DNA from: an uncultured delta proteobacterium
Lineage (GTDB): Bacteria; Myxococcota_A; Polyangia; Polyangiales; Polyangiaceae
Length of the DNA stretch: 32,000 bases
Assembly: GCA_963839305.1 (NCBI GenBank)
Contig: CAWIUL010000012.1
Span: forward strand, 1 to 32,000
Reading direction: 5' to 3'
Part shown: positions 12,547-31,765 of the stretch, in pieces
Layout: the number at the start of each line of letters is the position of its first letter
Numbering within the stretch: the stretch's first letter is position 1
Program-made: the position numbers and the translations under genes
Notes under the pieces: model-generated
Seen by the model: only the letters and a program-made list of their open reading frames with translations
What the model was told of the DNA's origin: nothing
Database searches by the model: none

Positions 12547-12562
12547 GTGACGCGCTCCGAAG

Positions 12563-12637: not shown

Positions 12638-12638
12638 A

Positions 12639-12726: not shown

Positions 12727-12733
12727 GTGTCGG

Positions 12734-12806: not shown

Positions 12807-12813
12807 ATGCCGG

Positions 12814-12887: not shown

Positions 12888-12894
12888 AGTCGAG

Positions 12895-12967: not shown

Positions 12968-12973
12968 AGCGGG

Positions 12974-13044: not shown

Positions 13045-13048
13045 ATTG

Positions 13049-13120
13049 CTCACCGAGAGGGAATCGAACCCCCGATAGGGCGCTTAACAGACGCCTGCCT
13101 TACCACTTGGCTATCGGTGA
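13049..13120 (-). tRNA. tRNA-Asn (anticodon GTT)
   Basis: U1-A72 acceptor TCACCGA/TCGGTGA, anticodon arm GGCGT-CTGTTAA-GCGCC, T arm GGGGG-TTCGATT-CCCTC, G73. Confidence 0.85.
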
Positions 13121-13187
13121 ATACAAAACAGGAGAGGCATGCCCGCATCGACGCGCGCCACGTCCTGGCAAATTTTCAAAGAGCAAA

Positions 13188-13203
13188 GTGCTCGCGAGAG
13201 CAC
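13188..13203 (-). terminator. intrinsic-terminator-like hairpin inside the tRNA array
   Basis: On the minus strand, GTGCTC-TCGC-GAGCAC is followed by TTTGCTCTTTGAAAATTT. It sits in the 84-nt spacer directly after tRNA-Gln(CTG). Confidence 0.45.
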
Positions 13204-13204
13204 C

Positions 13205-13279
13205 TGGTTCGGGCTGAAGGACTCGAACCTTCATTCTCGGTTTCAGAAACCGGCGTCCTAGCCGTTGGACGAAGCCCGA
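13205..13279 (-). tRNA. tRNA-Gln (anticodon CTG)
   Basis: U1-A72 acceptor TCGGGCT/AGCCCGA, anticodon loop TTCTGAA (one stem mismatch), T arm GAAGG-TTCGAGT-CCTTC, A73 and encoded CCA. Confidence 0.8.
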
Positions 13280-13288
13280 AAGCGGCAG

Positions 13289-13359
13289 TGGGTCCGGAGG
13301 GAATCGGACCCTCGCCGAGTGCTTAAGAGGCACCTGCTCGACCTTCGAGCTACGGACCC
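13289..13359 (-). tRNA. tRNA-Lys (anticodon CTT), atypical T loop
   Basis: Acceptor GGGTCCG/CGGACCC, D arm GCTC-GAAGGTC-GAGC (identical to the Gly-GCC gene), anticodon arm GGTGC-CTCTTAA-GCACT, T arm GAGGG-TCCGATT-CCCTC (C at position 55), A73. Confidence 0.7.
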
Positions 13360-13369
13360 ATCGATGAAG

Positions 13370-13442
13370 TGGGACGTTCCGGGATCGAACCGGACTCCTG
13401 CCGCTTAAAAGACGGCTGCATCACCATTGTTGCTAACGTCCC
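13370..13442 (-). tRNA. tRNA-Lys (anticodon TTT)
   Basis: Acceptor GGGACGT/ACGTCCC, anticodon arm GCCGT-CTTTTAA-GCGGC, T arm TCCGG-TTCGATC-CCGGA, A73. Confidence 0.85.
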
Positions 13443-13505
13443 TCTTTCTTCCTCGCCCGTCTCTCACGGGCATGAGTTTGCGTTTCATGATTGCGTTCCT
13501 CGTCT

Positions 13506-13591
13506 TGGTGGGATGCGGTGGAGTCGAACCACTTGCCCGAAGGCCACCGGGTTACAGCCGGCTTGAGCTTCCACTGCTCAGAACGCACCCC
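13506..13591 (-). tRNA. tRNA-Tyr (anticodon GTA), class II
   Basis: Acceptor GGGGTGC/GCATCCC, anticodon arm GCCGG-CTGTAAC-CCGGT, long variable arm, T loop TTCGACT, A73 and encoded CCA. Confidence 0.8.
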
Positions 13592-13708
13592 GCTTCGCGT
13601 GGATGGTTTAAGCGTCGATATCGCTCTTGATGGTTTTGGTTGGTGCTCATCGAGTACACGTCTCCGTGCTCCCAATCGGGAGCGCGAAACTTCGAGCCCA
13701 GAAACGAC

Positions 13709-13741
13709 GAAGGCCGCTCTCGGTTTCCCGAGGCGGCCTTC
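13709..13741 (-). terminator. long GC hairpin with GAAA tetraloop (terminator-like)
   Basis: On the minus strand, GAAGGCCGCCTCGG-GAAA-CCGAG(A)GCGGCCTTC is followed by GTCGTTTCT. It lies between tRNA-His and the array. Confidence 0.4.
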
Positions 13742-13951
13742 CTCTGCGCGTGTTGCGCGTGATGGAAGAACCGCCTCTACGTACCGACCTCCTGATTGCG
13801 TGCGGCCGACTTCGGTTCGATGGAGGCGGGATAGCTGGGCGTAAGCGAGTCACGATCGCCGGACAAAATGCACGACGGCCCAGCAAGCTCTTTTTGCGAG
13901 CTCCGGGCTAGAGACGTGAATTTCGGCGTGGGACACATCATGGGAAAATCT

Positions 13952-14028
13952 TGGGGTGAGTGACGGGATTCGAACCCGTGAATACGTGAGCCACAGACAC
14001 GCGCCTTGACCACTTGGCTACACCCACC
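13952..14028 (-). tRNA. tRNA-His (anticodon GTG) with encoded G-1
   Basis: G-1 pairs with C73. Acceptor GTGGGTG/CACTCAC, D arm GCC-AAGTGGTCAA-GGC, anticodon loop CTGTGGC, T arm ACGGG-TTCGAAT-CCCGT, encoded CCA. Confidence 0.85.
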
Positions 14029-14507: not shown

Positions 14508-14542
14508 TCGGATAGCGCGATACTGCGCGGGAGTGTTCGACG

Positions 14543-14854
14543 ATGGGACAAAAGAAGGAACTTAAGAAACGGCGCGCTCGGCGGACGTTCACGGCGGCGC
14601 AGAAGGCCGACGCGGTGCGGCTCGTGAAGAGCGGCAAGTCGGTCGCGCAGGTGGCGCGGGAGCTCGATCTGACGGCAACGTCGCTGCACGTGTGGGTACG
14701 GCGCGCGGAGGCGGATGCCGGCGAGCGTAGCGACGCGCTGACGACCCAGGAGCGCGAGGAGCTGTCGCGGCTGCGACGAGAGGTCAAGCACCTGCAGCGG
14801 GAACGCGACATCCTAAAAGCGGCGGCCACCTTCTTCGCGAAGGAGAGCGCGTGA
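14543..14854 (+). CDS. IS3-family transposase OrfA (HTH)
   Basis: MGQKKELKKRRARRTFTAAQKADAVRLVKSGKSVAQVARELDLTATSLHVWVRR... followed by a leucine-zipper-like ELSRLRREVKHLQRERDILKAAATFFAKE. Confidence 0.85.
   Translation: MGQKKELKKRRARRTFTAAQKADAVRLVKSGKSVAQVARELDLTATSLHVWVRRAEADAGERSDALTTQEREELSRLRREVKHLQRERDILKAAATFFAKESA
14815..14819 (+). promoter_or_regulatory. candidate -1 programmed frameshift site A-AAA-G for the OrfAB fusion
   Basis: orfA codons cta aaa gcg. orfB is in the -1 frame, and that frame is open from this point (PKSGGHLLREGERVKY...). Confidence 0.5.
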
Positions 14855-15723
14855 AGTACGCGTTCATCGATTCGCAGAAGGTGGCCTGGCCGGTCATGGC
14901 CATGTGCGAGGCGCTCGGCGTCTCCAAGAGCGGCTACTACGACTGGCTCGCCGAGCCCATCACCGAGCGTGAGCGTCGCGACGTCGCGCTCGCCTCCAAG
15001 GTCCGCGCCATCTTCGGAGACCATCGCGGCCGCTATGGGAGCCCTCGCGTCGCTGAGGAGCTGCGTGCCGACGGCGAGGTCGTCAACGAAAAGCGCGTCG
15101 CGCGCATCATGCGGGAAACCGGCCTCGTTGCGAGCCGCAGCAAGCGCTTCGTCGCCACGACCGACTCGGCCCACGCCGAGCCGATCGCGCCCAACCTGCT
15201 CGAGCGGAACTTCACCACAGACGCACGCAATCGCGTCTGGGTGACGGACGTGACGGCGATTTGGACGATGGCCGGCTGGTTGTATCTTGCAGCCATTCTC
15301 GACCTGTACTCGCGGCGAGTCGTGGGCTGGGCGACCAGCGATACCAACGACACCGCGCTCGCGCTCGACGCGCTCAGAGCAGCGTTGCGCGAGCGTCGCC
15401 CCGCGCCGGGGCTCGTCCACCACTCCGACCGCGGCAGCCCCTACGCGAGCGCCGCCTACCGTGCCGCGCTCTCGACCGCCGGCATCGTCGCGAGCATGAG
15501 CCGCAAAGGCGATTGCTGGGACAATGCCGTCGCCGAAAGCTTCAACGCTACCCTCAAGACCGAGGCCATCGACCACGTGCCCGCCGACCACGACGCCGGG
15601 ACGCGCCTCGTCGCCGCGTACATCGATGGCTACTACAACGTCCGGCGTAGGCACTCTTTCCTTGGTTACGAGACCCCGATCACGTTTGAATGGAAGCGGA
15701 CCATCACCGAGATGGCCGCGTGA
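14851..15723 (+). CDS. IS3-family transposase OrfB (DDE/RNase-H-like integrase core)
   Basis: 290 aa: ...GRYGSPRVAEELRADGEVVNEKRVARIMRETGLVA...RVWVTDVTAIWTMAGWLYLAAILDLYSRRVVGWA...VHHSDRGSPYAS..YRAAL...GIVASMSRKGDCWDNAVAESFNATLKTE. Confidence 0.9.
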   Translation: MKYAFIDSQKVAWPVMAMCEALGVSKSGYYDWLAEPITERERRDVALASKVRAIFGDHRGRYGSPRVAEELRADGEVVNEKRVARIMRETGLVASRSKRFVATTDSAHAEPIAPNLLERNFTTDARNRVWVTDVTAIWTMAGWLYLAAILDLYSRRVVGWATSDTNDTALALDALRAALRERRPAPGLVHHSDRGSPYASAAYRAALSTAGIVASMSRKGDCWDNAVAESFNATLKTEAIDHVPADHDAGTRLVAAYIDGYYNVRRRHSFLGYETPITFEWKRTITEMAA

Positions 15724-15933: not shown

Positions 15934-16007
15934 TGGACTCGGAGGCAGGATTCGAACCTGCGCCCAGCAGGTCCGAGCCTGCCGTTCTACCGCTGAACTA
16001 CTCCGAG
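15934..16007 (-). tRNA. tRNA-Pro (anticodon CGG)
   Basis: C1-G72 acceptor CTCGGAG/CTCCGAG, D arm GTTC-AGCGGTA-GAAC, anticodon arm GCAGG-CTCGGAC-CTGCT, T arm GCAGG-TTCGAAT-CCTGC, encoded CCA. Confidence 0.85.
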
Positions 16008-19288: not shown

Positions 19289-19873
19289 TCAGCCACCGTC
19301 GCCTTCGTCTCGTCGGGCAAACCCCACGTGCCGGCGTGAGTACGCGGGAAGACGCGCAGACACGAGGTCGATGGCCTCCTGCGCATTCGCCGCGCGATAC
19401 ACGCAGTCGTCCGGGATGTCCGGATAGCGCTCCCGATGATCGAGTCGTTGCCCTGCGAGCGTCTCGCTCCAACCCGGCGCCACGATCGCGACGATCAGGC
19501 GCCGGTACATCCACGCGAAGGCGATCTCCGAGAGCGTTCCGGCGCCGCCTCCCACGGCGACCATGGCGTCGCAATTGGCCACGAGAGAGTTCCGCGCGTG
19601 ATCGAGTCCGCTCGCGATGACGATGTCCGCCCACGCGTTGGCTTCTGCGGGATTCGGGTGTGGCAGGATCGCGAGCGTGTCCCCTTCGTGGTAGCGCGCG
19701 GACTCGTGCGCACCGCGTAATGCGGCCTCCATCACGCCACCAAGGCCGCCGGAGACGACGCGCATCCCCGCATCGACGGCGAGGCGTCCGAGGGTGCGTG
19801 CGTGTTCGTACGCGGGGTTGCCGTCGCTGACGCCAGCGTCACCCACCACAGCGAGCAGCGGTCTCCGCTTCAT
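19289..19873 (-). CDS. LOG / TIGR00725-like Rossmann-fold protein (lysine-decarboxylase-like family)
   Basis: VVGDAG....A..LGRLAVDAGMRVVSGGLGGVMEAALRGA...LAILP... and the LOG-type motif VAVGGGAGTLSEI. The ATG at 19873 overlaps the giant gene's TGA as ATGA, with GGAGG 7 nt upstream. An alternative ATG lies at 19894. Confidence 0.75.
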   Translation of the reverse strand: MKRRPLLAVVGDAGVSDGNPAYEHARTLGRLAVDAGMRVVSGGLGGVMEAALRGAHESARYHEGDTLAILPHPNPAEANAWADIVIASGLDHARNSLVANCDAMVAVGGGAGTLSEIAFAWMYRRLIVAIVAPGWSETLAGQRLDHRERYPDIPDDCVYRAANAQEAIDLVSARLPAYSRRHVGFARRDEGDGG

Positions 19874-22800
19874 TGGTCTACCTCCGGCATCCATTCGGCG
19901 TCATCGCAAGGAACTGCGCGTTGCATCGCCAGCATTCTCGGGACGTCGGGTACATCGTGCAGCGCGAAGCCGAGCCGCACTCCCATTCGGGACAGTGCGG
20001 CAGCGACACGCGCGTCCACGGCCCCGTCGGGATACGCGGCGGAGCACCCACTGCCTCCCATCCTGACCGTCCACTCGCGAGCCTGAGTGACGCATTCCGC
20101 GAACTCCCCATCATTGTAGAGCGTCCATCGAACGTGCTCCGTGCCATGCATGGCGATGCTCAGGTCTCCGGTCGCGACAAACTCTCGGAGCGTCCTTTCG
20201 TGCAGGTAAAGCGATCGCCGGAGCGCATCACCGTTGGCCGCCACGCGGTGGGCGGCCTCGAGCTGGTCGCGGACGGACGTTTGGAGGAAGGCCTCGCGCC
20301 AGTTTCGCATCTTCATCCGCTCCGAAGATTCTTCATCTGCATAGATCGCGTCGAGTGGAGCGAGGCTCGGCCACCCATCATCGAGTGCGGCGCGCACGAA
20401 GACCGTGCTCGGGATACCGAGCTTTTGCAGGATGGGCCACGCGTGTTCGGCGAAATCTCGGTAGCCATCATCGACCGTCACCAGGAGGGCGTTCTCCGGA
20501 AGAGCAACCTCGCCAGCCGCGGCGCGTTCGACATCGCCCAAATGAACGGGCACGTAACGCCGAACGAGCCGGCGAAGCTGCGCCTCGAAGGCGGCAGTGG
20601 ACACGACCATTCCCCGGTCGCGATAGACGCGCACAAGGCGGTTCGCGTGCGGGTCGGGGAGCACGCGGTGATAGCTCAGCGTCGTGAGCTTCAGAGCATT
20701 CGCCGCTCGTCGTCGCGGGTACGACGGCTTCGAAGTGAGCGATCGGATCACGCTTTCACGGGCGCTCCGTGCGGCGGCGTCTCTTGGGTCCGTCGGCTCG
20801 TGCAGATAGTTGGACTCGCGGATCCAGACCGGCCGTTTCGCCATCTCGATGATCGGCAGCATGAAGGCCCAGTCCGTCGCGCGCGCCCACCAAGACGCAC
20901 CATCTTGCAGATCGCTCGTCTCGATCCGGTCGAAGAGCGTTTTTCGGAACGTGCGCAGGTGTTGCCAGACCGCGCCGCCGCGCTTCGCACGTGGCGCTTC
21001 GAAGTCCACCGTGTAATTCGACTGCTTGTCCGTCCGGACCATCGACCCAACCGTCACGTCAGCGCCGCGCGCGTGCTCCTCCGCGACGCGCTCGAGCGCC
21101 TTCGTGCTCCCGAGCGCGTCGTCTAGGTCGACGAGGACAATCGCGGCTTCAGGTCTCGCGACGAGGTTCCGCACCGCGTGGTGCGTGTTCGCGAGCAGCC
21201 CTACGCGGCGCCTCCGCCGAACGAACGTCACGCGATCCCCAAAACGGACGCACTCACGCTTGAGGGTGTCATCCGAGCCATCGTCGGACGCGTCGTCGAT
21301 GACGATCGCCCCCCACGCCTGGAACGTTTGCGCGGCGAGGGAGTCCAGACAGCGTCGAATGCGCCCGGCGCCCACGTTGCGACCGCAGACGACGAGCACC
21401 ATGGACTCGTCGCGACCGCGCTGCAAAGATCGCGGCGAGCCGAGAACTTGCGCGGCGCGGGGACGGCCGACGTCGCGACCGTCGCGTTCGATCTCGTCGA
21501 TGAGCAGAAGAAGATCGTCGGCCTTCGACTTTCGCGCGTTGTCGGGGTGTGCGAACCAATGGGCGCGCGACCCGAGTCGTAGAGAGGTCCCCTTTCCAAA
21601 CGCCACGGCTCGGTCCAAGGAACGGTGCCACGGCAGCTGAAAGCGTCCATCACGCACCTCGTTCGCCAAAGGCCGGAGCCCTTGAGCGCGCGCCTTGTGG
21701 ATCCATCCGCAAATTGCCTCGACGCGGAAGGGACCCCGCTCGTCGCCATCGCGAACACGCGGAGCGTCGCCTGGCACTGGCAGCGCGAGCGTGAGCGCGT
21801 CCGGTCGTGCATCGAACGCGTCGATGGCTTCGCGAACGAAGTCGGCGACGGGATCGGGCCGCCCGACAAGCGTGTCGACATCCGCGTGAAGGACGAAATC
21901 TCCGGTGCACGCGTCGAGCGCCGAAAGGAACGCGACGAGCGCTTGGCCATTGGCTGCGTGTGTGGTGCCGCAGTCCGTGCCGAACCAGCGCTCCGCGACC
22001 TTGGCGATTTCGTGTTCGGCGGTAGGGGCCTCGACGACGCGGTCAACGATGCCGCGCCGTCGGAGGCGATCGAGCGCGGCGCGCGCACCGGGAAGATCGG
22101 CATGCGAGTGCTCACGCACGAACCCGGTCAGCGACGGGTCGAGCGCGACGATCACTTCGTCGAAGGCGCGTGGACGGGCCAATTGGTGGACGAGGTGCTC
22201 AACCTGAGCCTCGAGGGTCTCGGCGTCCATCGGACACGCTTTGATCACGAGTGATGTGCGCGCCTCGATCCGCGCGAGGGGTCGGAGCTCGAAAAGACGG
22301 AACTCGGGCACGCGCTCGAACCGATGGAGGTCCGTGCCGTCGACAATCGATTCTAGTGCGACGGCGAAACCTGCCGTAGCGAAGGCGCGTCGATACGCGT
22401 CGAGCGGGCGATGGACCTCGGTGCGAAGGTCTCCTGATGCCTCGCTGCGCTTCGTGTAGGACGAGATTGAAAGATATGCGTTCTCCTCTGGGTCGACGCG
22501 CGTCTGCGATGTAGTGCGCTCGACCCGACAACTTGTGGGGTCGCACACGGCGACGAGAACGCGACCGGTTTCTCGAACGACGTGCCGCATGCGCGCGAGG
22601 GCATCGCGCATCCCGCCGTCCTCGAGGGTGCAAAGCACGAGAGAGCATGTGATTGCGTCGAATGGCGCGCGTTCGAGGACGCGCCCGATGCAGCGTTCGT
22701 CGACGAAGACCCCGGGAGCTGCGGCCTCCCATCGCGCTCCCAAGCGCTCGTCCGGGTCGAACGCGAGAAGGCCGCGGACGCGCCGCTGGCCTCGCGGTTT

Positions 22801-25731
22801 CCCGCAGCCGTAGTCGAGCCAACTGGTCGCGCCGTGACGTTCGACCCACGCCAGAACGGCTTCATCAAGGACCTGTTTTGGATGCGGGCTTCGCAGCGCG
22901 TCGAGGAGGGCGCGCCAGCCCGTGAGCTCCGTGAAATCCTCTTCATCGACCGAGCGATGAAGGAGCTCGTTCAGGTCCGATCGGAACCAGAAGCGCCAGG
23001 ACAGGAACGCGCGCCGCACCATGCGCTCTTCGCCAACGGGGGTCGCCGGCTCGAGAGAGTGACCGAGATCGACGAGCTGAAGACCTCGCGCCGTGCGGCG
23101 AAGGTTCTTCGGGTGAATGTTCGTATGGACGAGACCGAGCGCGAGGAGCTCGCGAAGTAGCTCGTACATGCCGGGTCCATAGCTGCCTTCGAAGGGAGCA
23201 CTCTCGACGTACTCGCACTCGAGCACGAGGCCGTGCTGCGTCTCGTGAACCGCGACAACGTGCGGCAAGGACGAAGTCTCCTTGCCGACGAGGCGCCGGA
23301 GATGCGGCGTCGCACAGGTCACGGCGTCGCGGTCCAGCCCATCGAACACCTTCAACGTCCGATGCTCGCAGCGAAGAACGACTCCCTCCGCGCCCATGCC
23401 CAACATCTCATCGGCGGCGAAGCCAAGGTCGGCACCGATGGCCGCTGCGCGCGTTCTTCTGGCTTCCGCGAGCCAGCGCGCAGGCGCTTGGAATGTCGCC
23501 GTCGCCAGGTTCTGGCGATCACGCAGGAACGTCGCGATGTCCATTTCATCGATGCCACTCGAAACTGCGACCTCGATCGCGTCGGTTCGCGCTCGCGAGA
23601 AGCGTGCGTCGACGGCGTCGACGAGCTCGGCAACCTCCGTCCCGAGGGTGCTCGTCCACCAAGGGCTCGTGTCGAGCAATCGTCGGATGATCTGCACGAG
23701 GCCACGTGTGCGCCACCACGCGAGCCGCGCGGCGGCGAGTCGCTCGGTGACGTACTTGCGCGTGAGGTGCAGCAGCCGGTCGAGCTCCCCTTCGTCGAGG
23801 AGGGCGCCCTTGTTGCGAACGAGCATCTCGTACGCGCGAAAAAAACCGTAGCCCAGAATGTCGTCGACGAGTCTGCGCGAATCGTCCTGATCCTCCGGCT
23901 CTGAGGAGCGATCGTGCGAGAGCGCGAGCGGAATGGCCACGACGCGGCGGCCGTGAACGTGCGCGGCGTCTGCAGCCCAGAGCATGTCCGAGCGGCGTAT
24001 CGGGCGCTCGCCGACACGCGGCGACATGTTCGAGGCGGTCCGCAGAAGATCGAGATCGAAGACGAACGTGTTGCCTCCGCGAAGACACGACGGCCTCGCG
24101 CCCGCCACCACGTCCCCTGAAACACTCGGGAGCTCACGCGTGACGAGCTCGCCAGCGAGGATTCGCCGAAGCCTCCCTCGAAGATGCGCGACCGCCGTCC
24201 CCCAGGTAGCGTCCTGCGGAGCGGGCGAAAACGGCGTTTCGAGACGGTCAGTCTCCGACCTCGCGAGGTCGTAGTAGAAGTCGCGACGCGCTCGGCGCCA
24301 CCGATGATTGCGCACGAAGGGATCATCGGTCGCGTCGGTTGGCGAGTGCGTGGCGGCCGCATGGAGAAAGTGCGCGAGGTCAACGAGCTGGACCCGAATC
24401 GTGGAGGAGCTCGGAACCGGGGCCGCACCCGTGTTGCCGCCAAGCGCGACGGCGAAGCCGGCCTGTTTCGCGCGTGCGATTTGGGTGACGAAATGGTCGA
24501 GCACACGAGAATCCGTGGGTAGCCGATGGTCGTCGTCGACGATCCAAGCGACCGCTCCGGGTAAGCGAGAAGCGACCTCGCGGACGCAAGACTGAAGCAG
24601 CGTCCGGGCGACGGCGATACTCTTCGTGTCGGTTAGATCGGTTGGCAGGAGCGCGTGCTCTCGCGCGAGCTCGCGCTGCGCATCGAGGCCAACCGGCCAC
24701 GCGCGCAGTCCGAGGCGGGAGGCTGCGGTCACGACACCGTCGAAACCTCGCCGCGATCCGTTCTCCAACAGGACGACGTCCAACGACCGAACCCCAGCGG
24801 ATGCGCCCAGTCGCGCGAGCCCGTCGAGGAGCGGCAGCGCTCGATCGGGCCGCGCCCCATCGATGATCGTGCCCACCACAAGCGTCACTGAGCTCGCCAC
24901 GGGATTCGTCGGTGCCTCTTCCCTCACCGTCGAGGCGGGGAGAGCGAGCGGTGCTGGACTCCACCCGAAGAAGTCGCGCGCACGGTCGAGAAACGTGCGC
25001 TCGACGGCAGCGGTCATTCCCGGGCGCCATTTCGCGTAGAAGATCTCGAGACCGGCATGCTTCGCCGGATTCTCAGGGTCCGACAGGCGAGACCCTCCGT
25101 GAAGCGTGTCGTGGTGAGCTCGGGCTTCGGTGAGCGCGTGGTATCGCGCCCCAAGCTCGGCGAGCCGCGCGCACAGATCGCGGTCCGTGCAGCTCGGGAG
25201 CGCCTCATCGAACATACCTGCGCGAAGAAGCACGGAGAGCGTGGCGCTCAGATTCGATCCCTGGACGCCCGGGTTGCCTCGCAAGAAGTCCTCGACGAGG
25301 AGCGATGCCGGCGGAGCTTGCAGGCGGCCATCCGGCGTCTCGCTGTCATGCCGGACTAGCGTGGCGGCCAGTACCTCGACGTCCGTCGCCGCAATGGCGG
25401 CGCGTACGCTCGCAAGATACCCGCGCGCCCAATGGTCATCGTCATCAAGGAACGAGACCCACGACGCATCGGGTTCCTCGCTCCGCGCGAGGTGATCGAG
25501 AGCCGTATTCAACGCACCGCTCAACCCCGGGGTTCGTCGGTTCGTCAGGAGTTCGATTTGCCCCGCACGCGGTCTCGTCGGGTCGAGGTCGGGCTTGGCC
25601 GCGCCGTCGACCACGACGATGACGCGATCCGAATCGCTGACTTGATCGAGAACAGAATCGAGCGCGCGTGTGAGAAGGGCGGGACGACGGCCGGTGGTCG
25701 CGACGACCACGGAATGGCGGTGTGTTTTCAT
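19870..25731 (-). CDS. giant multi-domain protein: GT2, GT-A-like, kinase-like, SAM methyltransferase, GT-A-like, GT2 and NodB polysaccharide deacetylase domains
   Basis: Uninterrupted ORF; ATG at 25731 (MKTHRHSVVVATTG), alternative GTG at 25794. Domains, in ORF-track numbering from 25794: aa 27-230 GT2 (FLDDDD); aa 303-480 GT-A-like (WIVDDDH); aa 795-925 kinase-like (LVHTNIHPKNL, LVDLG). Then aa 985-1150 MTase (WLDYGCGKP); aa 1182-1345 GT-like (HADVD); aa 1465-1660 GT2 (VIDDASDDGS, VDLDD); aa 1700-1950 NodB (VTVDDGYRD, HGTEH). Confidence 0.8.
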   Translation of the reverse strand: MKTHRHSVVVATTGRRPALLTRALDSVLDQVSDSDRVIVVVDGAAKPDLDPTRPRAGQIELLTNRRTPGLSGALNTALDHLARSEEPDASWVSFLDDDDHWARGYLASVRAAIAATDVEVLAATLVRHDSETPDGRLQAPPASLLVEDFLRGNPGVQGSNLSATLSVLLRAGMFDEALPSCTDRDLCARLAELGARYHALTEARAHHDTLHGGSRLSDPENPAKHAGLEIFYAKWRPGMTAAVERTFLDRARDFFGWSPAPLALPASTVREEAPTNPVASSVTLVVGTIIDGARPDRALPLLDGLARLGASAGVRSLDVVLLENGSRRGFDGVVTAASRLGLRAWPVGLDAQRELAREHALLPTDLTDTKSIAVARTLLQSCVREVASRLPGAVAWIVDDDHRLPTDSRVLDHFVTQIARAKQAGFAVALGGNTGAAPVPSSSTIRVQLVDLAHFLHAAATHSPTDATDDPFVRNHRWRRARRDFYYDLARSETDRLETPFSPAPQDATWGTAVAHLRGRLRRILAGELVTRELPSVSGDVVAGARPSCLRGGNTFVFDLDLLRTASNMSPRVGERPIRRSDMLWAADAAHVHGRRVVAIPLALSHDRSSEPEDQDDSRRLVDDILGYGFFRAYEMLVRNKGALLDEGELDRLLHLTRKYVTERLAAARLAWWRTRGLVQIIRRLLDTSPWWTSTLGTEVAELVDAVDARFSRARTDAIEVAVSSGIDEMDIATFLRDRQNLATATFQAPARWLAEARRTRAAAIGADLGFAADEMLGMGAEGVVLRCEHRTLKVFDGLDRDAVTCATPHLRRLVGKETSSLPHVVAVHETQHGLVLECEYVESAPFEGSYGPGMYELLRELLALGLVHTNIHPKNLRRTARGLQLVDLGHSLEPATPVGEERMVRRAFLSWRFWFRSDLNELLHRSVDEEDFTELTGWRALLDALRSPHPKQVLDEAVLAWVERHGATSWLDYGCGKPRGQRRVRGLLAFDPDERLGARWEAAAPGVFVDERCIGRVLERAPFDAITCSLVLCTLEDGGMRDALARMRHVVRETGRVLVAVCDPTSCRVERTTSQTRVDPEENAYLSISSYTKRSEASGDLRTEVHRPLDAYRRAFATAGFAVALESIVDGTDLHRFERVPEFRLFELRPLARIEARTSLVIKACPMDAETLEAQVEHLVHQLARPRAFDEVIVALDPSLTGFVREHSHADLPGARAALDRLRRRGIVDRVVEAPTAEHEIAKVAERWFGTDCGTTHAANGQALVAFLSALDACTGDFVLHADVDTLVGRPDPVADFVREAIDAFDARPDALTLALPVPGDAPRVRDGDERGPFRVEAICGWIHKARAQGLRPLANEVRDGRFQLPWHRSLDRAVAFGKGTSLRLGSRAHWFAHPDNARKSKADDLLLLIDEIERDGRDVGRPRAAQVLGSPRSLQRGRDESMVLVVCGRNVGAGRIRRCLDSLAAQTFQAWGAIVIDDASDDGSDDTLKRECVRFGDRVTFVRRRRRVGLLANTHHAVRNLVARPEAAIVLVDLDDALGSTKALERVAEEHARGADVTVGSMVRTDKQSNYTVDFEAPRAKRGGAVWQHLRTFRKTLFDRIETSDLQDGASWWARATDWAFMLPIIEMAKRPVWIRESNYLHEPTDPRDAAARSARESVIRSLTSKPSYPRRRAANALKLTTLSYHRVLPDPHANRLVRVYRDRGMVVSTAAFEAQLRRLVRRYVPVHLGDVERAAAGEVALPENALLVTVDDGYRDFAEHAWPILQKLGIPSTVFVRAALDDGWPSLAPLDAIYADEESSERMKMRNWREAFLQTSVRDQLEAAHRVAANGDALRRSLYLHERTLREFVATGDLSIAMHGTEHVRWTLYNDGEFAECVTQAREWTVRMGGSGCSAAYPDGAVDARVAAALSRMGVRLGFALHDVPDVPRMLAMQRAVPCDDAEWMPEVDQ

Positions 25732-26086
25732 GAGACCCCAGATGCGAGAGGGCGCCTCAGGAAATCGATTCGATGGTGGTTCCCGAGGGTCCACGCAGAT
25801 CGGGAAGGATGTTCCGAACGACCAAGGTGCTGAAATTCACGGGACCGGAGCACTCCGGACTTTGGCGCATCGCCATCCCATGACCATTTGAACGGGCATC
25901 CCCACGCGATCGGCGTGAGCCCTCTTCTTCTAGCGCTGGCGAGGTGAAGCGCAAGGACCACGAGCTCGGCGCCGCAGCCGATGCAGTCGTTCACCGAGCT
26001 CGACGACTCTCTTTGGCGCGCGCGGGTTCGTCTTGCCGATCGCGAGCCGTACGTGATCGCTTGACAGCGGCCGCGCGACGCTCGCG

Positions 26087-26323
26087 TTACTCGCGCACTG
26101 AGCTTTCGTCCGCGAACCGGCGCTCGTCCTCGTCGTCATCACGGTCGAGGGGCCCGACGCCGAGCCAGCACGCGAGACAGTAATCGTCGACGCCGTCGAT
26201 GTAGCGGTACGGATGCTCGAAGTAGTGACCGCAATGTTCGAGCTCCGCGGGCGAGTACGTCTCAGAGCAGCGCGTACATCGGCGGGCGTCGTCCGGCGTG
26301 AGCGGCAGATTCGAAGAGTTCAT
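26087..26323 (-). CDS. small acidic-tailed Zn-ribbon protein (78 aa)
   Basis: MNSSNLPLTPDDARRCTRCSETYSPAELEHCGHYFEH...DDYCLACWLGVGPLDRDDDEDERRF. The start overlaps the RHH gene stop as ATGA (26320-26323). Confidence 0.55.
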   Translation of the reverse strand: MNSSNLPLTPDDARRCTRCSETYSPAELEHCGHYFEHPYRYIDGVDDYCLACWLGVGPLDRDDDEDERRFADESSVRE

Positions 26324-26523
26324 CGGCCGGCGGCCTCCTGTTCTTGACGTGCGGTTCGGAGCAGCACCATCACGCACCACGCCGAGATCGTGACGCCGGT
26401 GTGGTCTGCGGCGGCCTTTATTAGGCGGTGCTGCTCCTCGGTTAAGCGCACGCGGAGGAAAACCGAGCGTCGTTCGTCCGGGGGTTTGCGCCATGGTTTT
26501 CGCTGTTTGCGCGCGCTTGCCAT
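26320..26523 (-). CDS. ribbon-helix-helix (CopG/MobC-like) DNA-binding protein
   Basis: MASARKQRKPWRKPPDERRSVFLRVRLTEEQHRLIKAAADHTGVTISAWCVMVLLRTARQEQ has a strand-helix-helix pattern. It is divergent from DUF2130-A. Confidence 0.6.
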   Translation of the reverse strand: MASARKQRKPWRKPPDERRSVFLRVRLTEEQHRLIKAAADHTGVTISAWCVMVLLRTARQEQEAAGR

Positions 26524-26573
26524 GGCCGACTGTACCACACCAGTCCACGAACCGTTCACGATGGGTTGCGCAG

Positions 26574-26602
26574 TGTGCACGTTTGGGGTACAAACGTACG
26601 TG
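26574..26602. promoter_or_regulatory. imperfect palindrome (candidate operator) in the RHH / DUF2130-A divergent intergenic region
   Basis: GCACGTTTG-gggta-CAAACGTACGTGC. The core 7-bp arms ACGTTTG/CAAACGT lie at 26578-26596. Confidence 0.35.
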
Positions 26603-26642
26603 CGGCCCATCGGAAGGAATCAAGGTAGTCACATGAATCAGA

Positions 26643-27871
26643 GCAACAAACAGAACGGTCTCAACGGGAAATCCCACACGTCTCTCAGCTGTCCGGCATG
26701 CGGATCTCTCATCGCTCCCGAGGTGTACGAGCGCATCCTCCGCATCGACGAAGCGCGCCAGAAGGCGCTCGCCGAGGAGCGCGCGTCGCTCGACGCCGAG
26801 CGTGAGGCCCTCGAGAGCGAGCACGACTCCCTCCACAAGGAGCGCAAGGCGATCGCCGACGCGGCCGTCGAGGCAGCGCGCGCGAAGTGGGACACCGACA
26901 AGGCGCGCATCGTGAAGGAGATCGCGCGCCTCGAGCAGAAGGCGAAGAAGGAGCGGCAGCAGGTCGAGCGCGCGCGCGACAAGGATCGCAAGACGCTCGA
27001 GCGCCAGCTCGCCAGCGAGCGGACGAAGATGCGCGAGGCCGCCGACGCGCGCATTCGCGAAGCGGCGCGCAAGGCCGCGAACGAGCAGGAGGACGAGGTC
27101 GCGGACATGAAGGCGCAGCTCAAGACGTCGGAGCAGCGCCGCACGCGCGAGGAGGCGGGCTACAAGAAGGTCATCGGGGAGCTCCAGCGCAAGGTCGAAG
27201 CGCGCGACCGGCAGCACCTCGGTCCCGAGGGTGAACAGGAGCTCGTGGAGGACCTTCGTAAGGAGTTCCCGGGCGACCGCGTCGAGCACCACGGCAAGGG
27301 CGGGGATGTCGTCCAGGTGGTGATGGACGAGGGCGCGGTCGTCGGCAAGATCGTCTACGAAGCGAAGAACCGCACGTCGTGGTCCGCCGACTACGTGAAG
27401 CAGACGCAGCTCGCCATGGAGGAGCACGACACGCCGTATGGCATTCTCGTGAGCCGCGTCCTCCCGTCGCCGAAGACCGGCATGTGCATCATGCGCGGCG
27501 TGATCGTCGTCGCGCCCCTCATCGCCGCGCAGGTCGCGAAGGTCGTGCGCGAAAGCATGATCGCCATCCATCGCCTCAAGCTTTCGAACACGGACAAGGG
27601 CGCGAAGACGGCCGCGCTCTTCGAGTACCTCCGCGGGCAGGACTTCGCGACCGCGATGAAGCGCGTGTCGACGAAGCTCGGCGAGCTTCACACGAGCCTC
27701 TCTCGCGAGAAGTCGATGCACAACGGCTGGTGGCGAGATCGCGAGCAGCACTACGCCGCCATCGCGCGCGAGACGGCCGCCATCGACGGACGCGTCAAGG
27801 ATCTCCTCGGCGGTCGCGAGCTCGCGAAGACGAAGGGTCCGAGCCGCCGCCTCGACGTGGTGTCGGCGTAA
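26643..27871 (+). CDS. DUF2130-like protein A: N-terminal CxxC, coiled coil, C-terminal PD-(D/E)xK-like nuclease core
   Basis: MNQSNKQ...SLSCPACGSLI, then ~170 aa of charged heptad-like sequence, then FPGDRVEHHGKGGDVVQVVMDEGAVVGKIVYEAKNRTSWSADYVKQTQLAMEEHDTPYGILVSRVLP (D...E-x-K). An RBS-like aggaatcaagg lies upstream. Family assignment is from memory of the DUF2130 architecture. Confidence 0.65.
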
Positions 27872-27888
27872 GCGCGGAGGGCTGCACG

Positions 27889-28206
27889 ATGATGCCCACC
27901 AACCTGGCTCACTTCACGAAGAACCTCGCCCTCGCTTTCTACGCGAGGGCGAGGGAAGCGCGAGCACCGGACCGCGCGACCGACGACTACGAGTATCAGT
28001 TCATGGCGATCGTCTTGGCCGCGGTCTGGGTCGCGTCCGAGCACGGCACCTGCGACCCGTCGGAGCGGAGGGTGGGACTGCCGCCGCTGATGTCGCGAGA
28101 CAAGTTCCTCGAGATGGTGCGATCGGTCTACGACGACTGGCACAAGATTCGGCCGCCCGCGAAGCTCGTCGCGCTCGACGGCGGGCGTTCTCGCGGGCGT
28201 CGGTAG
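27889..28206 (+). CDS. small hypothetical protein P1 (105 aa), paralog of P2
   Basis: GGAGG lies 8 nt upstream of the ATG. LALAFYARAREARAPDRATDDYEYQFMAIVLAAVWVASEHG...FLEMVRSVYDDW aligns with P2. Confidence 0.6.
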   Translation: MMPTNLAHFTKNLALAFYARAREARAPDRATDDYEYQFMAIVLAAVWVASEHGTCDPSERRVGLPPLMSRDKFLEMVRSVYDDWHKIRPPAKLVALDGGRSRGRR

Positions 28207-28211
28207 CGACC

Positions 28212-28544
28212 ATGGCCGAACAGGAGAATCTCCCCGAGAGCGCCTCGCCGTATTGGGACGCGTTGAGTGATTTGGCGCGCGCGCTTTACACGCGCGCGCA
28301 CGCGTTCAACGGCTCGCGCAATCCGGCCACGGCGAACGAGATGCGAGTGATCGCGTTGCTGCTCGCGGCGACGTGGATGGCGACCGCGCAGAACCGGACG
28401 ACGCCGTGGTCCCGTCTGCCTGCGCCGTCCCCGCCGCCACGGATGCTCCGTGAGGTGTTCCTCCGGTGGGCCGGCGATCTCTGGGATTGCTGGGCGGCCT
28501 TGGAACCCGGGTTCGAGGACGACTCGATCATCATCGACGATTGA
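28212..28544 (+). CDS. small hypothetical protein P2 (110 aa), paralog of P1
   Basis: LARALYTRAHAFNGSRNPATANEMRVIALLLAATWMATAQN...FLRWAGDLWDCW. It starts 5 nt after the P1 stop. Confidence 0.6.
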   Translation: MAEQENLPESASPYWDALSDLARALYTRAHAFNGSRNPATANEMRVIALLLAATWMATAQNRTTPWSRLPAPSPPPRMLREVFLRWAGDLWDCWAALEPGFEDDSIIIDD

Positions 28545-28558
28545 CGAGCCGTTCAACG

Positions 28559-29626
28559 TCAGCGCTGGCGCGCTCGTCGAGCCGCAACTTTCGTTGGAGC
28601 AGCGGCGCCCTCACGGCGGCGAGCCTTCTTGACGCCGAGTGCTGGTGGACGAGCGTATACTTCGTGTAGTGCCAAGGCGCGAAGCGTGATCTCGTCCCGC
28701 AAGGTCGAGGGCGAGACCACCTCCGCCTCTTCCCCAAACCCGAGGATCCACGCGACCAACTCGGGGCACACGCTCACGCGCATCCTCACGAGGACGTGGT
28801 CGTCGTGAACTTCGACGTTCTGTGAATCGTGCCAGCGATGCGACGTTGCGTAAGTCGCCCATTGCTTGTGAAGCTTCAAGACGACGTCCTGAACCGACTT
28901 GTCGAGGAAGATGCCGAACGAATCGCGAAAGACTTGCTCCGGGTCGTATGCGGCGCGGTCGGGATAGGTGAACGTGTCGTCGAGCACGTTGACCGTGCGA
29001 ATGCGCGCGAACCGATACGGGTGAAGGGCGTGTTTGGGGTCGCGCCCGACGATGTAGAGCTGGTGGTCATGGAGCGCGAGGGACAGCGGCTCGATGCGCA
29101 TGCAGGCGGATGTTCCGCCGAAGTTCGTGTAGTCGAGTGCGAGGACGCGGTGATGAAGAACGGCTTCGAGAACTTCGTCGAGGAGCTCTGCCCGATCGAC
29201 TAACGCGACTTCGCCGCCGCGACGAAGGAACCAGAACTTGCGATCGATGTCGCGGAACACAGCACGCCGCTTCGTTCGGCCGATGACGTCCTTCGCTGCG
29301 TCGCGAATGCCGGCGCCGTACGTCGTCCCCTCGAACAGATGCCAGAGGCTGGAACCAAAGCACGCGGCGACTGCCGTCGGGTACGACGGAGCGGCCGCAA
29401 ACGCGGTCGGGTCGATGCGAATCTTTCGTTGCTTGCCCTCGTGAAACTCGGACACGCCGGGCAAATGCTCGAGCGCGGCGTTCATGAGTCGGTCGGCTTG
29501 CGCTGGGCGAATGTGCAAGCGCTCGGCGAGCGAATGGCGGTCGTGCTCGCGCCCCCGCAAGAGATCGGCGACGAGTGTGAAATGGCGCGTGATGCTCTTG
29601 GAGCGATGAGCTTCGCTCTTCGTCAT
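28559..29626 (-). CDS. WYL-domain transcriptional regulator (HTH-WYL-WCX architecture)
   Basis: N-terminal HTH-like ITRHFTLVADLLRGREHDRHSLAERLHIRPAQADRLMNAL. WYL core HHRVLALDYTNFGG...EPLSLALHDHQLYIVGRDPKHALHPYRFARIRTV. C-terminal ...VCPELVAWILGFGEEAEVVSPSTLRDEI. Start taken at MTKSEAH (29626); the ORF-track start is 29680. Confidence 0.75.
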   Translation of the reverse strand: MTKSEAHRSKSITRHFTLVADLLRGREHDRHSLAERLHIRPAQADRLMNAALEHLPGVSEFHEGKQRKIRIDPTAFAAAPSYPTAVAACFGSSLWHLFEGTTYGAGIRDAAKDVIGRTKRRAVFRDIDRKFWFLRRGGEVALVDRAELLDEVLEAVLHHRVLALDYTNFGGTSACMRIEPLSLALHDHQLYIVGRDPKHALHPYRFARIRTVNVLDDTFTYPDRAAYDPEQVFRDSFGIFLDKSVQDVVLKLHKQWATYATSHRWHDSQNVEVHDDHVLVRMRVSVCPELVAWILGFGEEAEVVSPSTLRDEITLRALALHEVYARPPALGVKKARRREGAAAPTKVAARRARQR

Positions 29627-29633
29627 CCATCCA

Positions 29634-29647
29634 GGATCGGATGATCC
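29634..29647. promoter_or_regulatory. palindrome GGATC-ggat-GATCC just upstream of the WYL start (candidate operator)
   Basis: Lies 8 nt upstream of the WYL ATG, in the 96-bp region shared with DUF2130-B. A further GGATC lies at 29652-29656. Confidence 0.3.
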
Positions 29648-29722
29648 GCACAGGATCACAACTTCGAAAACCGCGAGCATCGGGCCATCGGTGGCCGCAC
29701 CCTAGTAAGCACAGAGGGACCG

Positions 29723-31765
29723 ATGGATTACACGAGCAACGTTCGCTGTCCGAAGTGCCTGCACGAGTTCGAGCTAGAAGCCGTCATGCGCAACGCCATG
29801 GAGGCCGACGTCCGAGCTTCGATGGCGCAGGAGTTCGAGAAGCAGGCGCTCGCAAACAAGGCTGACGCGGATGCGCGCATCAAGCAGAAAGATGACGAGC
29901 TTGCCGAAGCGCGGAGCAAGGTTGCCGCAATCGCGACGACGGAGGCGACGCTGTTGAAGCAGCAGCGCCAGCTCGCCGAGCGAGAGCAGACGATGGACCT
30001 TGTGTTCGAGAAACGTGTCGCGGAAGAAACGACTCGGATTCGCGAGCACGAGACGAAGGTGGCGCACGAGAAGGCCGCCAAGGAAGCCGACGAGCGGGTG
30101 CGCAGCGCAACCGAGGAACTGTCGGAAGCGCGCGCCAAGCTCGCCGCCGCGACGACGCGTGAAGCCGACGTTCTGAAGAAGCAACGCGAGCTCGCAGAGA
30201 AAGAGCGACGACTCGAAGTCGACCTCGAGCAGCGATTGGCCGCCGAGAGGCAACGTATCCGCGAGGAGGAGGCGAAGGCCGCGGCGGACAAATGCACGCG
30301 TGAGGTCGCGAGCCAATTGCGCACGAAGCAAGAAGAGCTCGATGACGCGAACGCGCGGCTCGCCGAGGCCACGTCGCGCGAGGCGGACGTTCTGAAGCAG
30401 CAACGCGAGGTCGCAGAAAAGCAAGCGCGGCTCGATCTCGACTTCGAGCGCCGCATTGCCGAGGAAACGAACCGGATTCGGGAGCAGGAGGCGAAGGCGG
30501 CGACGGAGCGCTGCACGCGCGACGCTCAAGAGCAGGTGCGGACGAAGCAAGAGGAACTCGACACTGCGAACAAGAAGCTCACGGAGGCGTCGTCGAGAGA
30601 GGTCGAGCTGCTGAAGAGGCAACGCGAGCTCTCCGACCGCGAACGGGCGTTCGAAGTGGAAAAAGAGCGCGCGATCGCGGAGGCGTCGTCGCACGCGCGT
30701 CAAGACGAGGCGATGCTCGCGAAGGAGAGGGCGACTCTTCAGCAAGAGCAACAACGGCTACGTGACGAAGAGCACCGTCAACAAATCGGCGGTCTCGAAA
30801 AAACGATCTCCGAGCTGACGCGACAAGTTCAGCAAGGCTCGATGCAGCTTCAGGGTGAAGCGCAGGAGGTCGTGCTTCGCGACGTGCTCGCGAGCGCGTT
30901 TCCGATTGACCAGTTTGATGACGTGCCCACCGGCGTTCCGGGGGCCGACGTTCTGCAGCGTGTTCGCGCGGCCGACGGCAGCGACTGCGGTGTCATCGTG
31001 TGGGAGAGCAAGCGAACGAAGAACTGGTCCGACGCATGGTTGCCCAAGGTGCGCGACGATCAGCGGGAGGCGGGCGCTTCGATTGCGGTGATCGTCACCC
31101 AAGCGCTCCCGGCCGACATTCGGCACTTCAGTGTGAAGGATGGCGTCTGGGTGTGCGCTCCGGCCTTTGCGCATCCGCTCGGTATTGCCTTGCGCAAGGC
31201 GCTCGTTGATGTCGCCGCTACGAAGCGAGCCGCCGAGGGAAGTGGTCAGAAGATGCACATCCTCTACGAGTATCTGATCGGCCCAGAGTTTCGGAACCGT
31301 GTCGAGGGTGTGCTCGAGGCCTTCGTCGACATGCGCGAAGACCTCGACGGCGAGAAACGCGCGCTCTTGGCACGATGGAAGAAGCGCGAGCGGCAAATCA
31401 ATCGAGCGCTCACGAACGTGACGGCGTTCTATGGCGATCTTCAAGGCATCGCTGGTCGACAACTACGTGACCTGCCTCAACTCACGCTCGATGCTGCACC
31501 TTCACCAGCCTTGCCGCCGTCGAGCAGCGTGCCCGTCGATGACGAAGGCCTGAAGGATCTCCTCATGCGCCTTTTGCCCGACGACGGGGCGGGAGTCGGC
31601 AACGCGACGTTGATGGATCGATTCCTCGACCAAGCGCTCGTCGAGCTTGGTGCGGAGCTGCGGCCGGAAGACTACGAGCGCTGCAAGGAGATGCTCCTCG
31701 ACGAAGGACGCGCGCGACGAGGCAAGGGTAAGGGGGGCTCCGTTTGCCGCGTCATCGCAGCTTGA
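29723..31765 (+). CDS. DUF2130-like protein B (680 aa) with expanded coiled coil and extra C-terminal domain
   Basis: MDYTSNVRCPKCLHEF, four 73-aa coiled-coil repeats, then the nuclease-like core FPIDQFDDVPTGVPGADVLQRVRAADGSDCGVIVWESKRTKNWSDAWLPKVRDDQREAGASIAVIVTQALP (D409...E428-S-K430). A ~90-aa C-terminal extension is absent from copy A. Confidence 0.7.
   Translation: MDYTSNVRCPKCLHEFELEAVMRNAMEADVRASMAQEFEKQALANKADADARIKQKDDELAEARSKVAAIATTEATLLKQQRQLAEREQTMDLVFEKRVAEETTRIREHETKVAHEKAAKEADERVRSATEELSEARAKLAAATTREADVLKKQRELAEKERRLEVDLEQRLAAERQRIREEEAKAAADKCTREVASQLRTKQEELDDANARLAEATSREADVLKQQREVAEKQARLDLDFERRIAEETNRIREQEAKAATERCTRDAQEQVRTKQEELDTANKKLTEASSREVELLKRQRELSDRERAFEVEKERAIAEASSHARQDEAMLAKERATLQQEQQRLRDEEHRQQIGGLEKTISELTRQVQQGSMQLQGEAQEVVLRDVLASAFPIDQFDDVPTGVPGADVLQRVRAADGSDCGVIVWESKRTKNWSDAWLPKVRDDQREAGASIAVIVTQALPADIRHFSVKDGVWVCAPAFAHPLGIALRKALVDVAATKRAAEGSGQKMHILYEYLIGPEFRNRVEGVLEAFVDMREDLDGEKRALLARWKKRERQINRALTNVTAFYGDLQGIAGRQLRDLPQLTLDAAPSPALPPSSSVPVDDEGLKDLLMRLLPDDGAGVGNATLMDRFLDQALVELGAELRPEDYERCKEMLLDEGRARRGKGKGGSVCRVIAA
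29897..30772 (+). repeat. four tandem in-frame 219-bp (73-aa) repeats inside DUF2130-B
   Basis: Units start at ELAEARSKV (29897), ELSEARAKL (30116), ELDDANARL (30335) and ELDTANKKL (30554). Units 2 and 3 share long near-identical DNA stretches (gacgttctgaagaagcaacgcgagctcgcagagaaaga vs gacgttctgaagcagcaacgcgaggtcgcagaaaagca). Confidence 0.8.

Follow-up and report, generated by a model that had tools for sequence, protein, structure and literature searches.

Two separately regulated DUF2130 genes of an uncultured delta proteobacterium as candidate stand-alone nuclease defence cassettes

What are two large coiled-coil proteins of one uncharacterised family doing next to each other, each encoded opposite a putative regulator gene of a different kind? 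This question is raised by positions 26087 to 31765 of a stretch of 32,000 nucleotides (nt) from an uncultured delta proteobacterium (assembly GCA_963839305.1, contig CAWIUL010000012.1, positions 1 to 32,000), the whole of which is called the window below. An earlier note on this DNA had described the span as twin cassettes, each made of a regulator and a nuclease-like protein of the DUF2130 family (DUF2130-A and DUF2130-B), and had offered it as a candidate defence locus. The reading favoured here is that of two separately regulated DUF2130 nuclease cassettes acting in defence, to which we give a probability of about one half. A candidate regulated stand-alone nuclease defence gene is a credible description of the effector, its defence role being read entirely from the gene neighbourhoods of homologues. 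Judged by its sequences, the locus is far beyond what chance would give, in view of strong Pfam E-values and of a gene order that both regulator-nuclease pairs keep in unrelated contigs.

Two predicted nucleases of one family

Gene models were derived from the list of open reading frames (ORFs) and from inspection of the start codons, which gave seven genes in the span; all of the genes described previously were found to exist. Both large proteins are DUF2130 members, as had been supposed. A search with Pfam hidden Markov models matched PF09903 in DUF2130-A (26633-27871, plus strand, 412 amino acids (aa); E=1.6e-24, 87.1 bits) and in DUF2130-B (29723-31765, plus strand, 680 aa; E=5e-60, 203.4 bits) against a gathering cut-off of 26.7, and the same model was matched by 75 of 77 aligned relatives. 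The start of DUF2130-A, formerly placed at 26643, was 10 nt off and was moved to the ATG at 26633, which is preceded by GGAAGGAATCAAGG.

The common architecture attributed to the two proteins, with an N-terminal CPxC, a long helix and an E...D...ExK signature, was recovered in both. The motifs quoted for them, GGDVV...IVYEAKNRTSW in A and GADVL...IVWESKRTKNWS in B, were present in the translations, where they sit on family columns that are invariant or nearly so. In the family alignments such columns were, in the numbering of B, C9, P10, C12, E382, D409, E428, K430 and W435. The catalytic signature comprises E201, D225 (G-x-D) and E243-A-K245 (E-x-K) in A, and E382, D409 (G-x-D) and E428-S-K430 (E-x-K) in B, followed in each case by a tryptophan (W435 in B); E201 and E382 lie in the helix preceding the core. 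The main-branch motif QGSQQxQGE is missing from DUF2130-A, which keeps GxxGE.

AlphaFold2 models were obtained for DUF2130-A (predicted local distance difference test score, pLDDT, of 81) and for aa 340-680 of DUF2130-B (pLDDT 88). In both, an alpha-beta-beta-beta-alpha-beta core was predicted, with the signature residues on the expected elements (E on helix 1, D on strand 2, (D/E)xK on strand 3) and two more long helices beyond it. DUF2130-A is laid out as CPAC (aa 20-23), a single long helix (aa 29-191), the PD-(D/E)xK core (aa 198-293) and C-terminal helices (aa 295-391); DUF2130-B has CPKC at aa 9-12, the core at aa ~380-478 and a helical hairpin at aa 480-581. Mrr-type restriction endonuclease domains were the best matches of the core in the viral structure library BFVD (E=1.3e-4 and 3.7e-3). 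A sequence search of the PDB with the family profile found no solved structure, returning only coiled-coil and zinc-finger noise. No transmembrane segment was predicted in A or B. The PD-(D/E)xK assignment made earlier from the motifs was thus borne out by a signature conserved in the alignments and a predicted fold that agrees with it, and Steczkiewicz et al. (2012; PMC3424549) had already placed DUF2130/COG4487 among the PD-(D/E)xK families, its function being unknown. The two proteins would therefore belong to a soluble, coiled-coil, Mrr-like PD-(D/E)xK family of predicted nucleases. The statement that this family has no assigned function and is not a named defence system agrees with the searches made: neither PADLOC-DB v2 nor the searchable defence literature includes it.

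The coiled coil of DUF2130-B consists of four tandem units of 73 aa (aa 43-334, nt 29849-30724), detected as a 219-nt tandem repeat in the DNA and as a best self-offset of 73 aa in the protein. Every unit contains the family-conserved motif (A/V)xLLK(K/Q)QRE, and two of the units retain 76% DNA identity. Among 145 relatives the median length was 422, 519, 615, 687 and 785 aa for proteins with one to five units, respectively. Since the number of units tracks the length of the homologue, the coiled-coil arm appears to be modular, and this series of 73-residue expansions is natural material for asking what arm length does. The C-terminus of DUF2130-B (aa ~607-677) is predicted to form a winged helix, with matches to cullin WHB, Fur and F-93 (TM score 0.85, root mean square deviation 1.9 Å), and this extension is common to the B-clade relatives.

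Matches of the long helix to other coiled-coil families were also considered. DUF2130-A matched the PADLOC families LmuB, LeoBC and PDC-S06 at the level of the coiled coil (best 1.4e-5, on aa 15-189). Identity with SMC, Rad50, SbcC or LmuB was rejected, the scores being far below the cut-offs and the matches confined to the helix; low scores and coverage of the coiled coil alone mark them as composition noise. For DUF2130-B, no effector family of PADLOC-DB v2.0, whose lists run to 2023, was matched.

The word "twin" in the earlier description did not hold. Identity between A and B is no more than 26% (E=9e-20), so the two are not the product of a recent duplication; they fall in different subfamilies, each with its own conserved partner. 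The A-type subfamily is rare, with about 25 clusters among 5.8 billion proteins, and B-type proteins have hundreds of relatives. A genome scan of species representatives gave at least 600 pattern matches, and 593 of those listed encode DUF2130 relatives. One close relative with a named source, at 59% identity, comes from a Polyangiaceae metagenome-assembled genome.

Regulators and partner genes of the two cassettes

The gene divergent from DUF2130-B (28559-29626, minus strand) encodes a WYL-WCX transcription regulator of 355 aa, with Pfam matches to WYL (E=4.4e-9, aa 147-213) and WCX (E=3e-14, aa 246-317). Two PADLOC WYL models also matched, at 5e-28 and 1.1e-12, the latter (PDLC01457) spanning aa 12-308. 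An N-terminal helix-turn-helix was not called by Pfam, and that part of the protein is assigned through the coverage of the PADLOC model. To follow the pair outside the window, 26 metagenomic loci were fetched by a scan with the B-clade alignment and then searched for the window proteins; a metagenome scan using B alone had given no matches. A WYL orthologue was found directly upstream of the B-type gene, and divergent from it, in 14 of the 26 loci and in L001, which makes 15 loci. The orthologues were 62-71% identical to the WYL protein of the window, and this regulator is better conserved than the nuclease that accompanies it. In L003 a WYL gene lay about 3 kb from the DUF2130 gene. One locus with a 47% match to B (L140) had no WYL gene within 6 kb upstream; in the other loci without WYL and with a B match above 45%, the contig ended too near the match to judge. 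The WYL gene is the sole constant neighbour in the B clade, and the genes downstream vary.

The region between the two divergent genes contains a palindrome, GATCC-N5-GGATC (29643-29657), within a 29-nt operator-like block, AGGATCGGATGATCCGCACAGGATCACAA, at 29633-29661, 7-35 nt ahead of the start codon of the WYL gene. The core GATCCnCAnAGGATCAnAA was conserved at 90% or more in 16 of 16 aligned WYL/DUF2130 intergenic regions in which the surrounding DNA had diverged. The complete block was 100% identical in L001 with diverged flanks, and an extra GGATC half-site was present upstream in 11 of the loci. This conserved footprint is the strongest new result of the analysis, and it is what would be expected of the operator of an autoregulated WYL gene, for which it is a candidate site. 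The divergent arrangement noted previously was therefore found again in 15 other loci together with a palindromic candidate operator, and WYL and DUF2130-B are, on these comparisons, a conserved divergent two-gene module. Scans for sigma-70 promoters and terminators between 25700 and 32000 gave nothing better than shuffled sequences.

A short metagenomic contig (L148, 487-1077) was also recorded, in which the C-terminal half of a WYL protein abuts a fragment of the DUF2130 core (aa 370-428). It may have arisen from the module by rearrangement or as a chimera.

In cassette A, DUF2130-A faces a putative regulator of another fold, a ribbon-helix-helix (RHH) DNA-binding protein of 67 aa (26320-26523, minus strand). 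Its Pfam matches were to NikA-like (E=5.5e-7), TacA1 (1.2e-4) and ParD (2e-4) proteins, and the HicB family was matched as well. A divergent RHH gene stood beside the A-type gene in all three contexts obtained, with nucleases 77% (L007 and L008) and 59% (L009) identical to DUF2130-A. A candidate RHH operator was located in the intergenic region (26531-26592) as an imperfect inverted repeat, TGTACCACACCAGTCCAC / GTGCACGTTTGGGGTACA, with two arms of 18 nt (26531-26548 and 26575-26592) that are 72% complementary; both arms were kept in the intergenic region of L009, where the spacer sequence differs. When the protein was examined as a type II toxin-antitoxin antitoxin or a NikA-like relaxosome component, the RHH fold matched but neither a relaxase nor a known toxin was found nearby.

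The RHH gene and the adjoining zinc-ribbon gene had been given as one gene from 26523 to 26087, but they are two ORFs in different frames. The zinc-ribbon protein (78 aa; 26087-26323, minus strand) begins at an ATG with GGAGG upstream. This ATG overlaps the RHH stop codon as ATGA, an overlap by which the two genes are predicted to be translationally coupled; the partner co-transcribed with the divergent RHH gene is the zinc-ribbon gene. Its cysteines are arranged as C16-x2-C19 ... C49-x2-C52, and it ends in a strongly acidic C-terminal tail, DRDDDEDERRFADESS.

On the other side, DUF2130-A is followed after 18 nt by P1 (27889-28206, plus strand, 105 aa), an orphan protein, and then by P2 (28212-28544, plus strand, 110 aa). 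The two are real paralogues, 30% identical (E=2e-9), of a family with 15 representatives among 1.84 billion proteins and the motifs LLAAxWxAxE..G...PW and F(L/I)xWA...(W/Y)DxW...RP. Neither they nor the zinc-ribbon protein had a match in Pfam, PADLOC, NCBIfam or PHROG. A copy of P1, 75% identical, directly followed the DUF2130-A homologue in L007 and L008 but not in L009. The zinc-ribbon gene had a copy, 48% identical, directly downstream of the RHH gene in L009 and none in L007 or L008, and P2 was absent from all three. The small genes cannot all be taken as constant parts of the cassette, since the zinc-ribbon gene and P2 vary among these contexts.

Gene neighbourhoods of homologues and competing readings

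For the wider family, 80 loci were taken from the genome scan matches listed and their 10-kb flanks were analysed by ORF calling, BLAST clustering and annotation of the recurrent clusters; the counts refer to 73 of them. A defence-type gene was immediately adjacent to the DUF2130 gene in 18 of the 73 loci, on the same strand in 18 of 18 and mostly 3-50 nt away. The adjacent genes were of the SIR2(-HerA), AAA_13, OLD, DrmD-like SNF2 (PADLOC DrmD, E=8e-216) and PDC-S46 (E=9e-278) types. Within 10 kb a defence-type gene was found in 28 loci, a raw count without a genome-wide background. The recurrent clusters were type III Mod (14 loci), Res (11), DrmD-like SNF2 helicases (9), AAA_13 ATPases (8) and HerA (6, together with SIR2 in 5), and they also included OLD-type nucleases, Schlafen/AlbA_2, YhcG, HsdR, GmrSD and PDC-S46. 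Some of the DUF2130 copies were embedded in restriction-modification (R-M) operons of type I or type III. The claim that homologues sit beside defence genes was therefore upheld in many loci, but it was not carried as far as statistical enrichment, the genome-wide background being absent and the far-flank control weak.

One arrangement was repeated on one strand in ten loci (L013, L019, L023, L026, L031, L032, L038, L048, L054 and L068): a DrmD-like SNF2 gene, (Schlafen/AlbA_2), DUF2130, (SIR2-HerA or an AAA_13/AAA_15 ATPase), type III Mod and Res. Its hosts were Nitrospirota, Nitrosomonadales/Gallionellaceae and Planctomycetota metagenome-assembled genomes.

Closer relatives of B were found in similar company. 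In L151 (1776-15056), whose DUF2130 protein is 47% identical to B, the genes hsdM-hsdS-Abi_C-hsdR-DUF2130-AAA_11/12 helicase run on one strand; the helicase gene overlaps the DUF2130 stop codon, and no WYL gene is present. A WYL-DUF2130 pair in L150 stands beside GmrSD_N, a NERD-kinase, ParE and PIN/Phd, and the neighbours are a NERD-UvrD helicase, a HerA-like ATPase and DUF559 in L002, and toxin-antitoxin genes, transposases and Uma2 in L001 and L003. Relatives were also carried by mobile DNA: 41 plasmid records (many conjugative), seven Helicobacter prophage records and 33 IMG/VR contigs. The plasmid-borne relatives adjoin NB-ARC, SIR2 and PIN genes. Additionally, in Table S3 of DefensePredictor (PMC13092281) a DUF2130 neighbour has a mean SHAP (Shapley additive explanations) value of 0.94 at position +/-1 (16 cases) and of 0.55 at +/-2 (21 cases). 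These values agree with the neighbourhood signal and are an independent published hint. It is credible, then, that DUF2130/COG4487 is an accessory, horizontally moving family of defence islands and R-M operons.

If the cassettes act in defence, a mechanism for cassette B may be proposed. The WYL-WCX protein would bind GATCC-N5-GGATC beside its own start codon and keep both divergent genes low, until the WYL domain sensed a sign of infection or of DNA damage and expression was released. DUF2130-B would form an oligomer through its extended coiled coil, and the N-terminal CPxC may contribute a zinc site shared between chains; such a site would need pairing of chains, because CPxC offers just two cysteines. 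The winged helix and the nuclease core would then bind and cut DNA, and the outcome would be the destruction of the invading DNA (direct restriction) or abortive infection. Cassette A would likewise provide an effector of this kind, drawn from a subfamily that is rare and divergent and regulated by the RHH protein, and P1 and P2 may modulate DUF2130-A as inhibitor or adaptor, by analogy with the accessory genes of the Shield defence system. A bolder form of the proposal takes WYL plus DUF2130 as a complete, unnamed two-gene system against phages or plasmids that senses DNA ends or structures. The proteins would be ATP-independent coiled-coil "ruler" nucleases, in which the CPxC motifs of two chains would make up a zinc hook like that of Rad50 and the count of 73-residue modules would fix the length of the arm; we consider this form quite unlikely.

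Several observations weigh against the defence reading. The PADLOC scan of the window found no known defence system, its matches being limited to the WYL protein, a generic HNH and a weak SLOG, and a full-text literature search for DUF2130, PF09903 and COG4487 returned no functional study. Structural matches in the PDB were weak (nuclease domains of SPARDA, DdmD and McrC, E 0.02-0.07). No recurrent defence-type neighbour was detected in 45 of the 73 family loci. PADLOC families matched in near flanks numbered 203, with at most 6 members each, and in far flanks 145, with at most 4 members each; this control discriminates weakly, because the far flanks still lie within islands, and also contain defence genes, and because families were counted instead of proteins. 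WYL regulators also govern DNA-damage responses. Finally, the window stops 235 nt past DUF2130-B, so downstream partners would be out of view.

The alternative that survives best, although we hold it to be unlikely, makes DUF2130 an RmuC-like nuclease of repair or recombination control and the WYL protein a damage sensor like PafBC or DriD, with cassette B inducible by damage. WYL regulators include the activators PafBC and DriD, which respond to single-stranded DNA. The layout is also RmuC-like, the PD-(D/E)xK core coming after an N-terminal part that is helical or a coiled coil, and the short motif before that core, QGxxGExxL, resembles the KTQGNWGEVVL of RmuC; the 45 loci without recognisable defence neighbours would suit such a role. 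However, an hhalign comparison with E. coli RmuC, made with that single sequence and not with a profile, was not significant (probability 0.8%). No match to RmuC (PF02646) was obtained for A or B at Pfam E<=0.1, and RmuC was absent from the top 25 families at E<=1 for the 77 relatives. Variable contexts, carriage on plasmids and prophages, divergent copies side by side and same-strand insertion in R-M operons would all be unusual for a housekeeping repair gene. Moreover, according to the Shield report (PMC10270631), RmuC domains have themselves been co-opted for defence.

It is rather improbable that DUF2130 is an accessory subunit or sensor for the systems that it adjoins (type I/III R-M, SIR2-HerA, AAA_13), of which the copies studied here would be orphans or would have partners outside the window. 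The operon-like spacing of 3-50 nt to varied partners, always on the same strand, would fit this view, as would the recurrent SNF2-DUF2130-SIR2-HerA-Mod-Res arrangement, the overlap with the downstream helicase gene in L151 and the end of the window just past DUF2130-B. By contrast, the partners vary among the loci, a pattern typical of independent island genes. The one constant neighbour of the B clade is the WYL gene, with no conservation downstream, and the A-type copy has small private partners only.

Least probable of all is a role of the cassettes as modules for the maintenance of mobile elements or for addiction to them, or in anti-restriction or counter-defence on their behalf, with the RHH protein antitoxin-like or of relaxosome type and P1/P2 as immunity proteins. 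The NikA-like, TacA, ParD and HicB matches of the RHH protein, the phage-type integrase adjoining the cassette in L009, the homologues on conjugative plasmids and in prophages, and the mosaic window with its insertion sequence (IS) element of the IS3 type, HNH gene and tRNA array speak for it. However, neither a relaxase nor a toxin turned up as a partner, the RHH and nuclease genes are divergent instead of co-transcribed, an orientation that suits a regulator, and tight same-strand linkage to SIR2-HerA, AAA_13, OLD and R-M genes fits defence better than counter-defence. Defence genes commonly ride on mobile elements, so mobile carriage does not discriminate between this explanation and a role in defence.

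Surroundings of the locus and comparison with known systems

The rest of the window is a mosaic accessory region. The neighbouring tRNA array and IS3-type transposase (rve) mentioned previously do exist, but they mark an accessory region and not defence as such, and the window gave no support to the "defence-island setting" drawn from them. In total, 27 tRNA genes were predicted between 8670 and 16007; 25 of these form a tight minus-strand array at 11368-14027 that covers most amino acids, and the prediction at 15934-16007 has an abnormal two-base anticodon. The G+C content is 0.585-0.59 across 11-14 kb and 0.63-0.72 elsewhere in the window. An HNH endonuclease gene (10920-11402, minus strand; Pfam HNH_5 2.2e-15, PHROG HNH 3.4e-25) abuts one end of the array, and the IS3-type transposase gene (14516-15723, plus strand; HTH_21, rve and rve_3) lies at the other. 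With these two genes at its ends, the array looks like mobile cargo. A search for att-like direct repeats bounding an island at the tRNA-Arg found none.

Closer to the locus, a single ORF of 1974 aa (19870-25794, minus strand) combines domains of glycosyltransferase family 2 and of polysaccharide deacetylase with large parts that have no annotation. A SLOG cluster-4 (LDcluster4) protein is encoded immediately downstream of it (19289-19894, minus strand), with weak matches to the PADLOC families PsyrA and ShosA. At the far end of the window (105-6827), long ORFs matched small parts of the models for AcrB, an outer-membrane efflux protein and E1-E2 ATPase; these ORFs may represent decayed genes, or may have been called wrongly because the DNA is rich in G+C.

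DUF2130/COG4487 is widespread and has had no function since its placement in the PD-(D/E)xK superfamily in 2012. The locus offers it in a compact form, with a two-gene WYL-nuclease module, a defined 15-bp palindrome and clear catalytic residues. If the defence reading is true, a single-effector nuclease system would be added to the defence catalogue and the range of WYL-controlled immunity would be widened. It would also account for a gene left unannotated within many type I/III restriction operons and beside SIR2-HerA.

Among known proteins, Rad50/SbcC resemble DUF2130 in the length of the coiled coil and in a CxxC motif by which two chains could join around zinc. In contrast to them, DUF2130 has no ATPase head, and its CxxC is N-terminal instead of lying at the apex of an antiparallel coiled coil; the comparison is an analogy only. 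In the predicted models, the core fold and the E...D...ExK signature would be held in common with Mrr and type IV restriction domains, SPARDA, DdmD and McrC. DUF2130 goes beyond these domains in its very long coiled coil, CPxC knuckle and C-terminal helical hairpin, and its polypeptide includes no partner ATPase, helicase or Argonaute.

On the side of regulation, BrxR-type WYL regulators are known from the vicinity of defence systems (PMC9122601); a search of supplementary files from that study did not find DUF2130. The regulator of cassette B has in common with the BrxR/CapW type the WYL and WCX domains, the divergent position, an intergenic palindrome and the association with defence islands. 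It differs in its target: BrxR and CapW control bacteriophage exclusion (BREX) or cyclic-oligonucleotide-based anti-phage signalling (CBASS) systems, whereas the WYL gene of cassette B adjoins, and would control, a single DUF2130 nuclease gene.

The closest system in kind is Shield. As described in PMC10270631, the protein ShdA alone suffices for anti-phage immunity and degrades DNA in vitro. Like DUF2130, for which this comparison draws wholly on sequence and models, ShdA combines, in one polypeptide, an N-terminal part made of helices and a nuclease domain of the PD-(D/E)xK superfamily. The same source places ShdA in defence islands, where DUF2130 relatives are also encoded, and describes small modulating accessory genes in some Shield subtypes, a possible parallel to P1 and P2. 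ShdA, however, has an RmuC domain (PF02646) and is membrane-bound in that account, while A and B match PF09903 and have no predicted transmembrane segment. A and B also differ from it in the N-terminal CPxC and, in B, in the 73-aa coiled-coil repeats and the winged helix. Therefore the locus, with neither RmuC domain nor membrane anchor, is not a member of Shield. What it adds beside ShdA is a candidate regulated stand-alone nuclease effector from an uncharacterised family.

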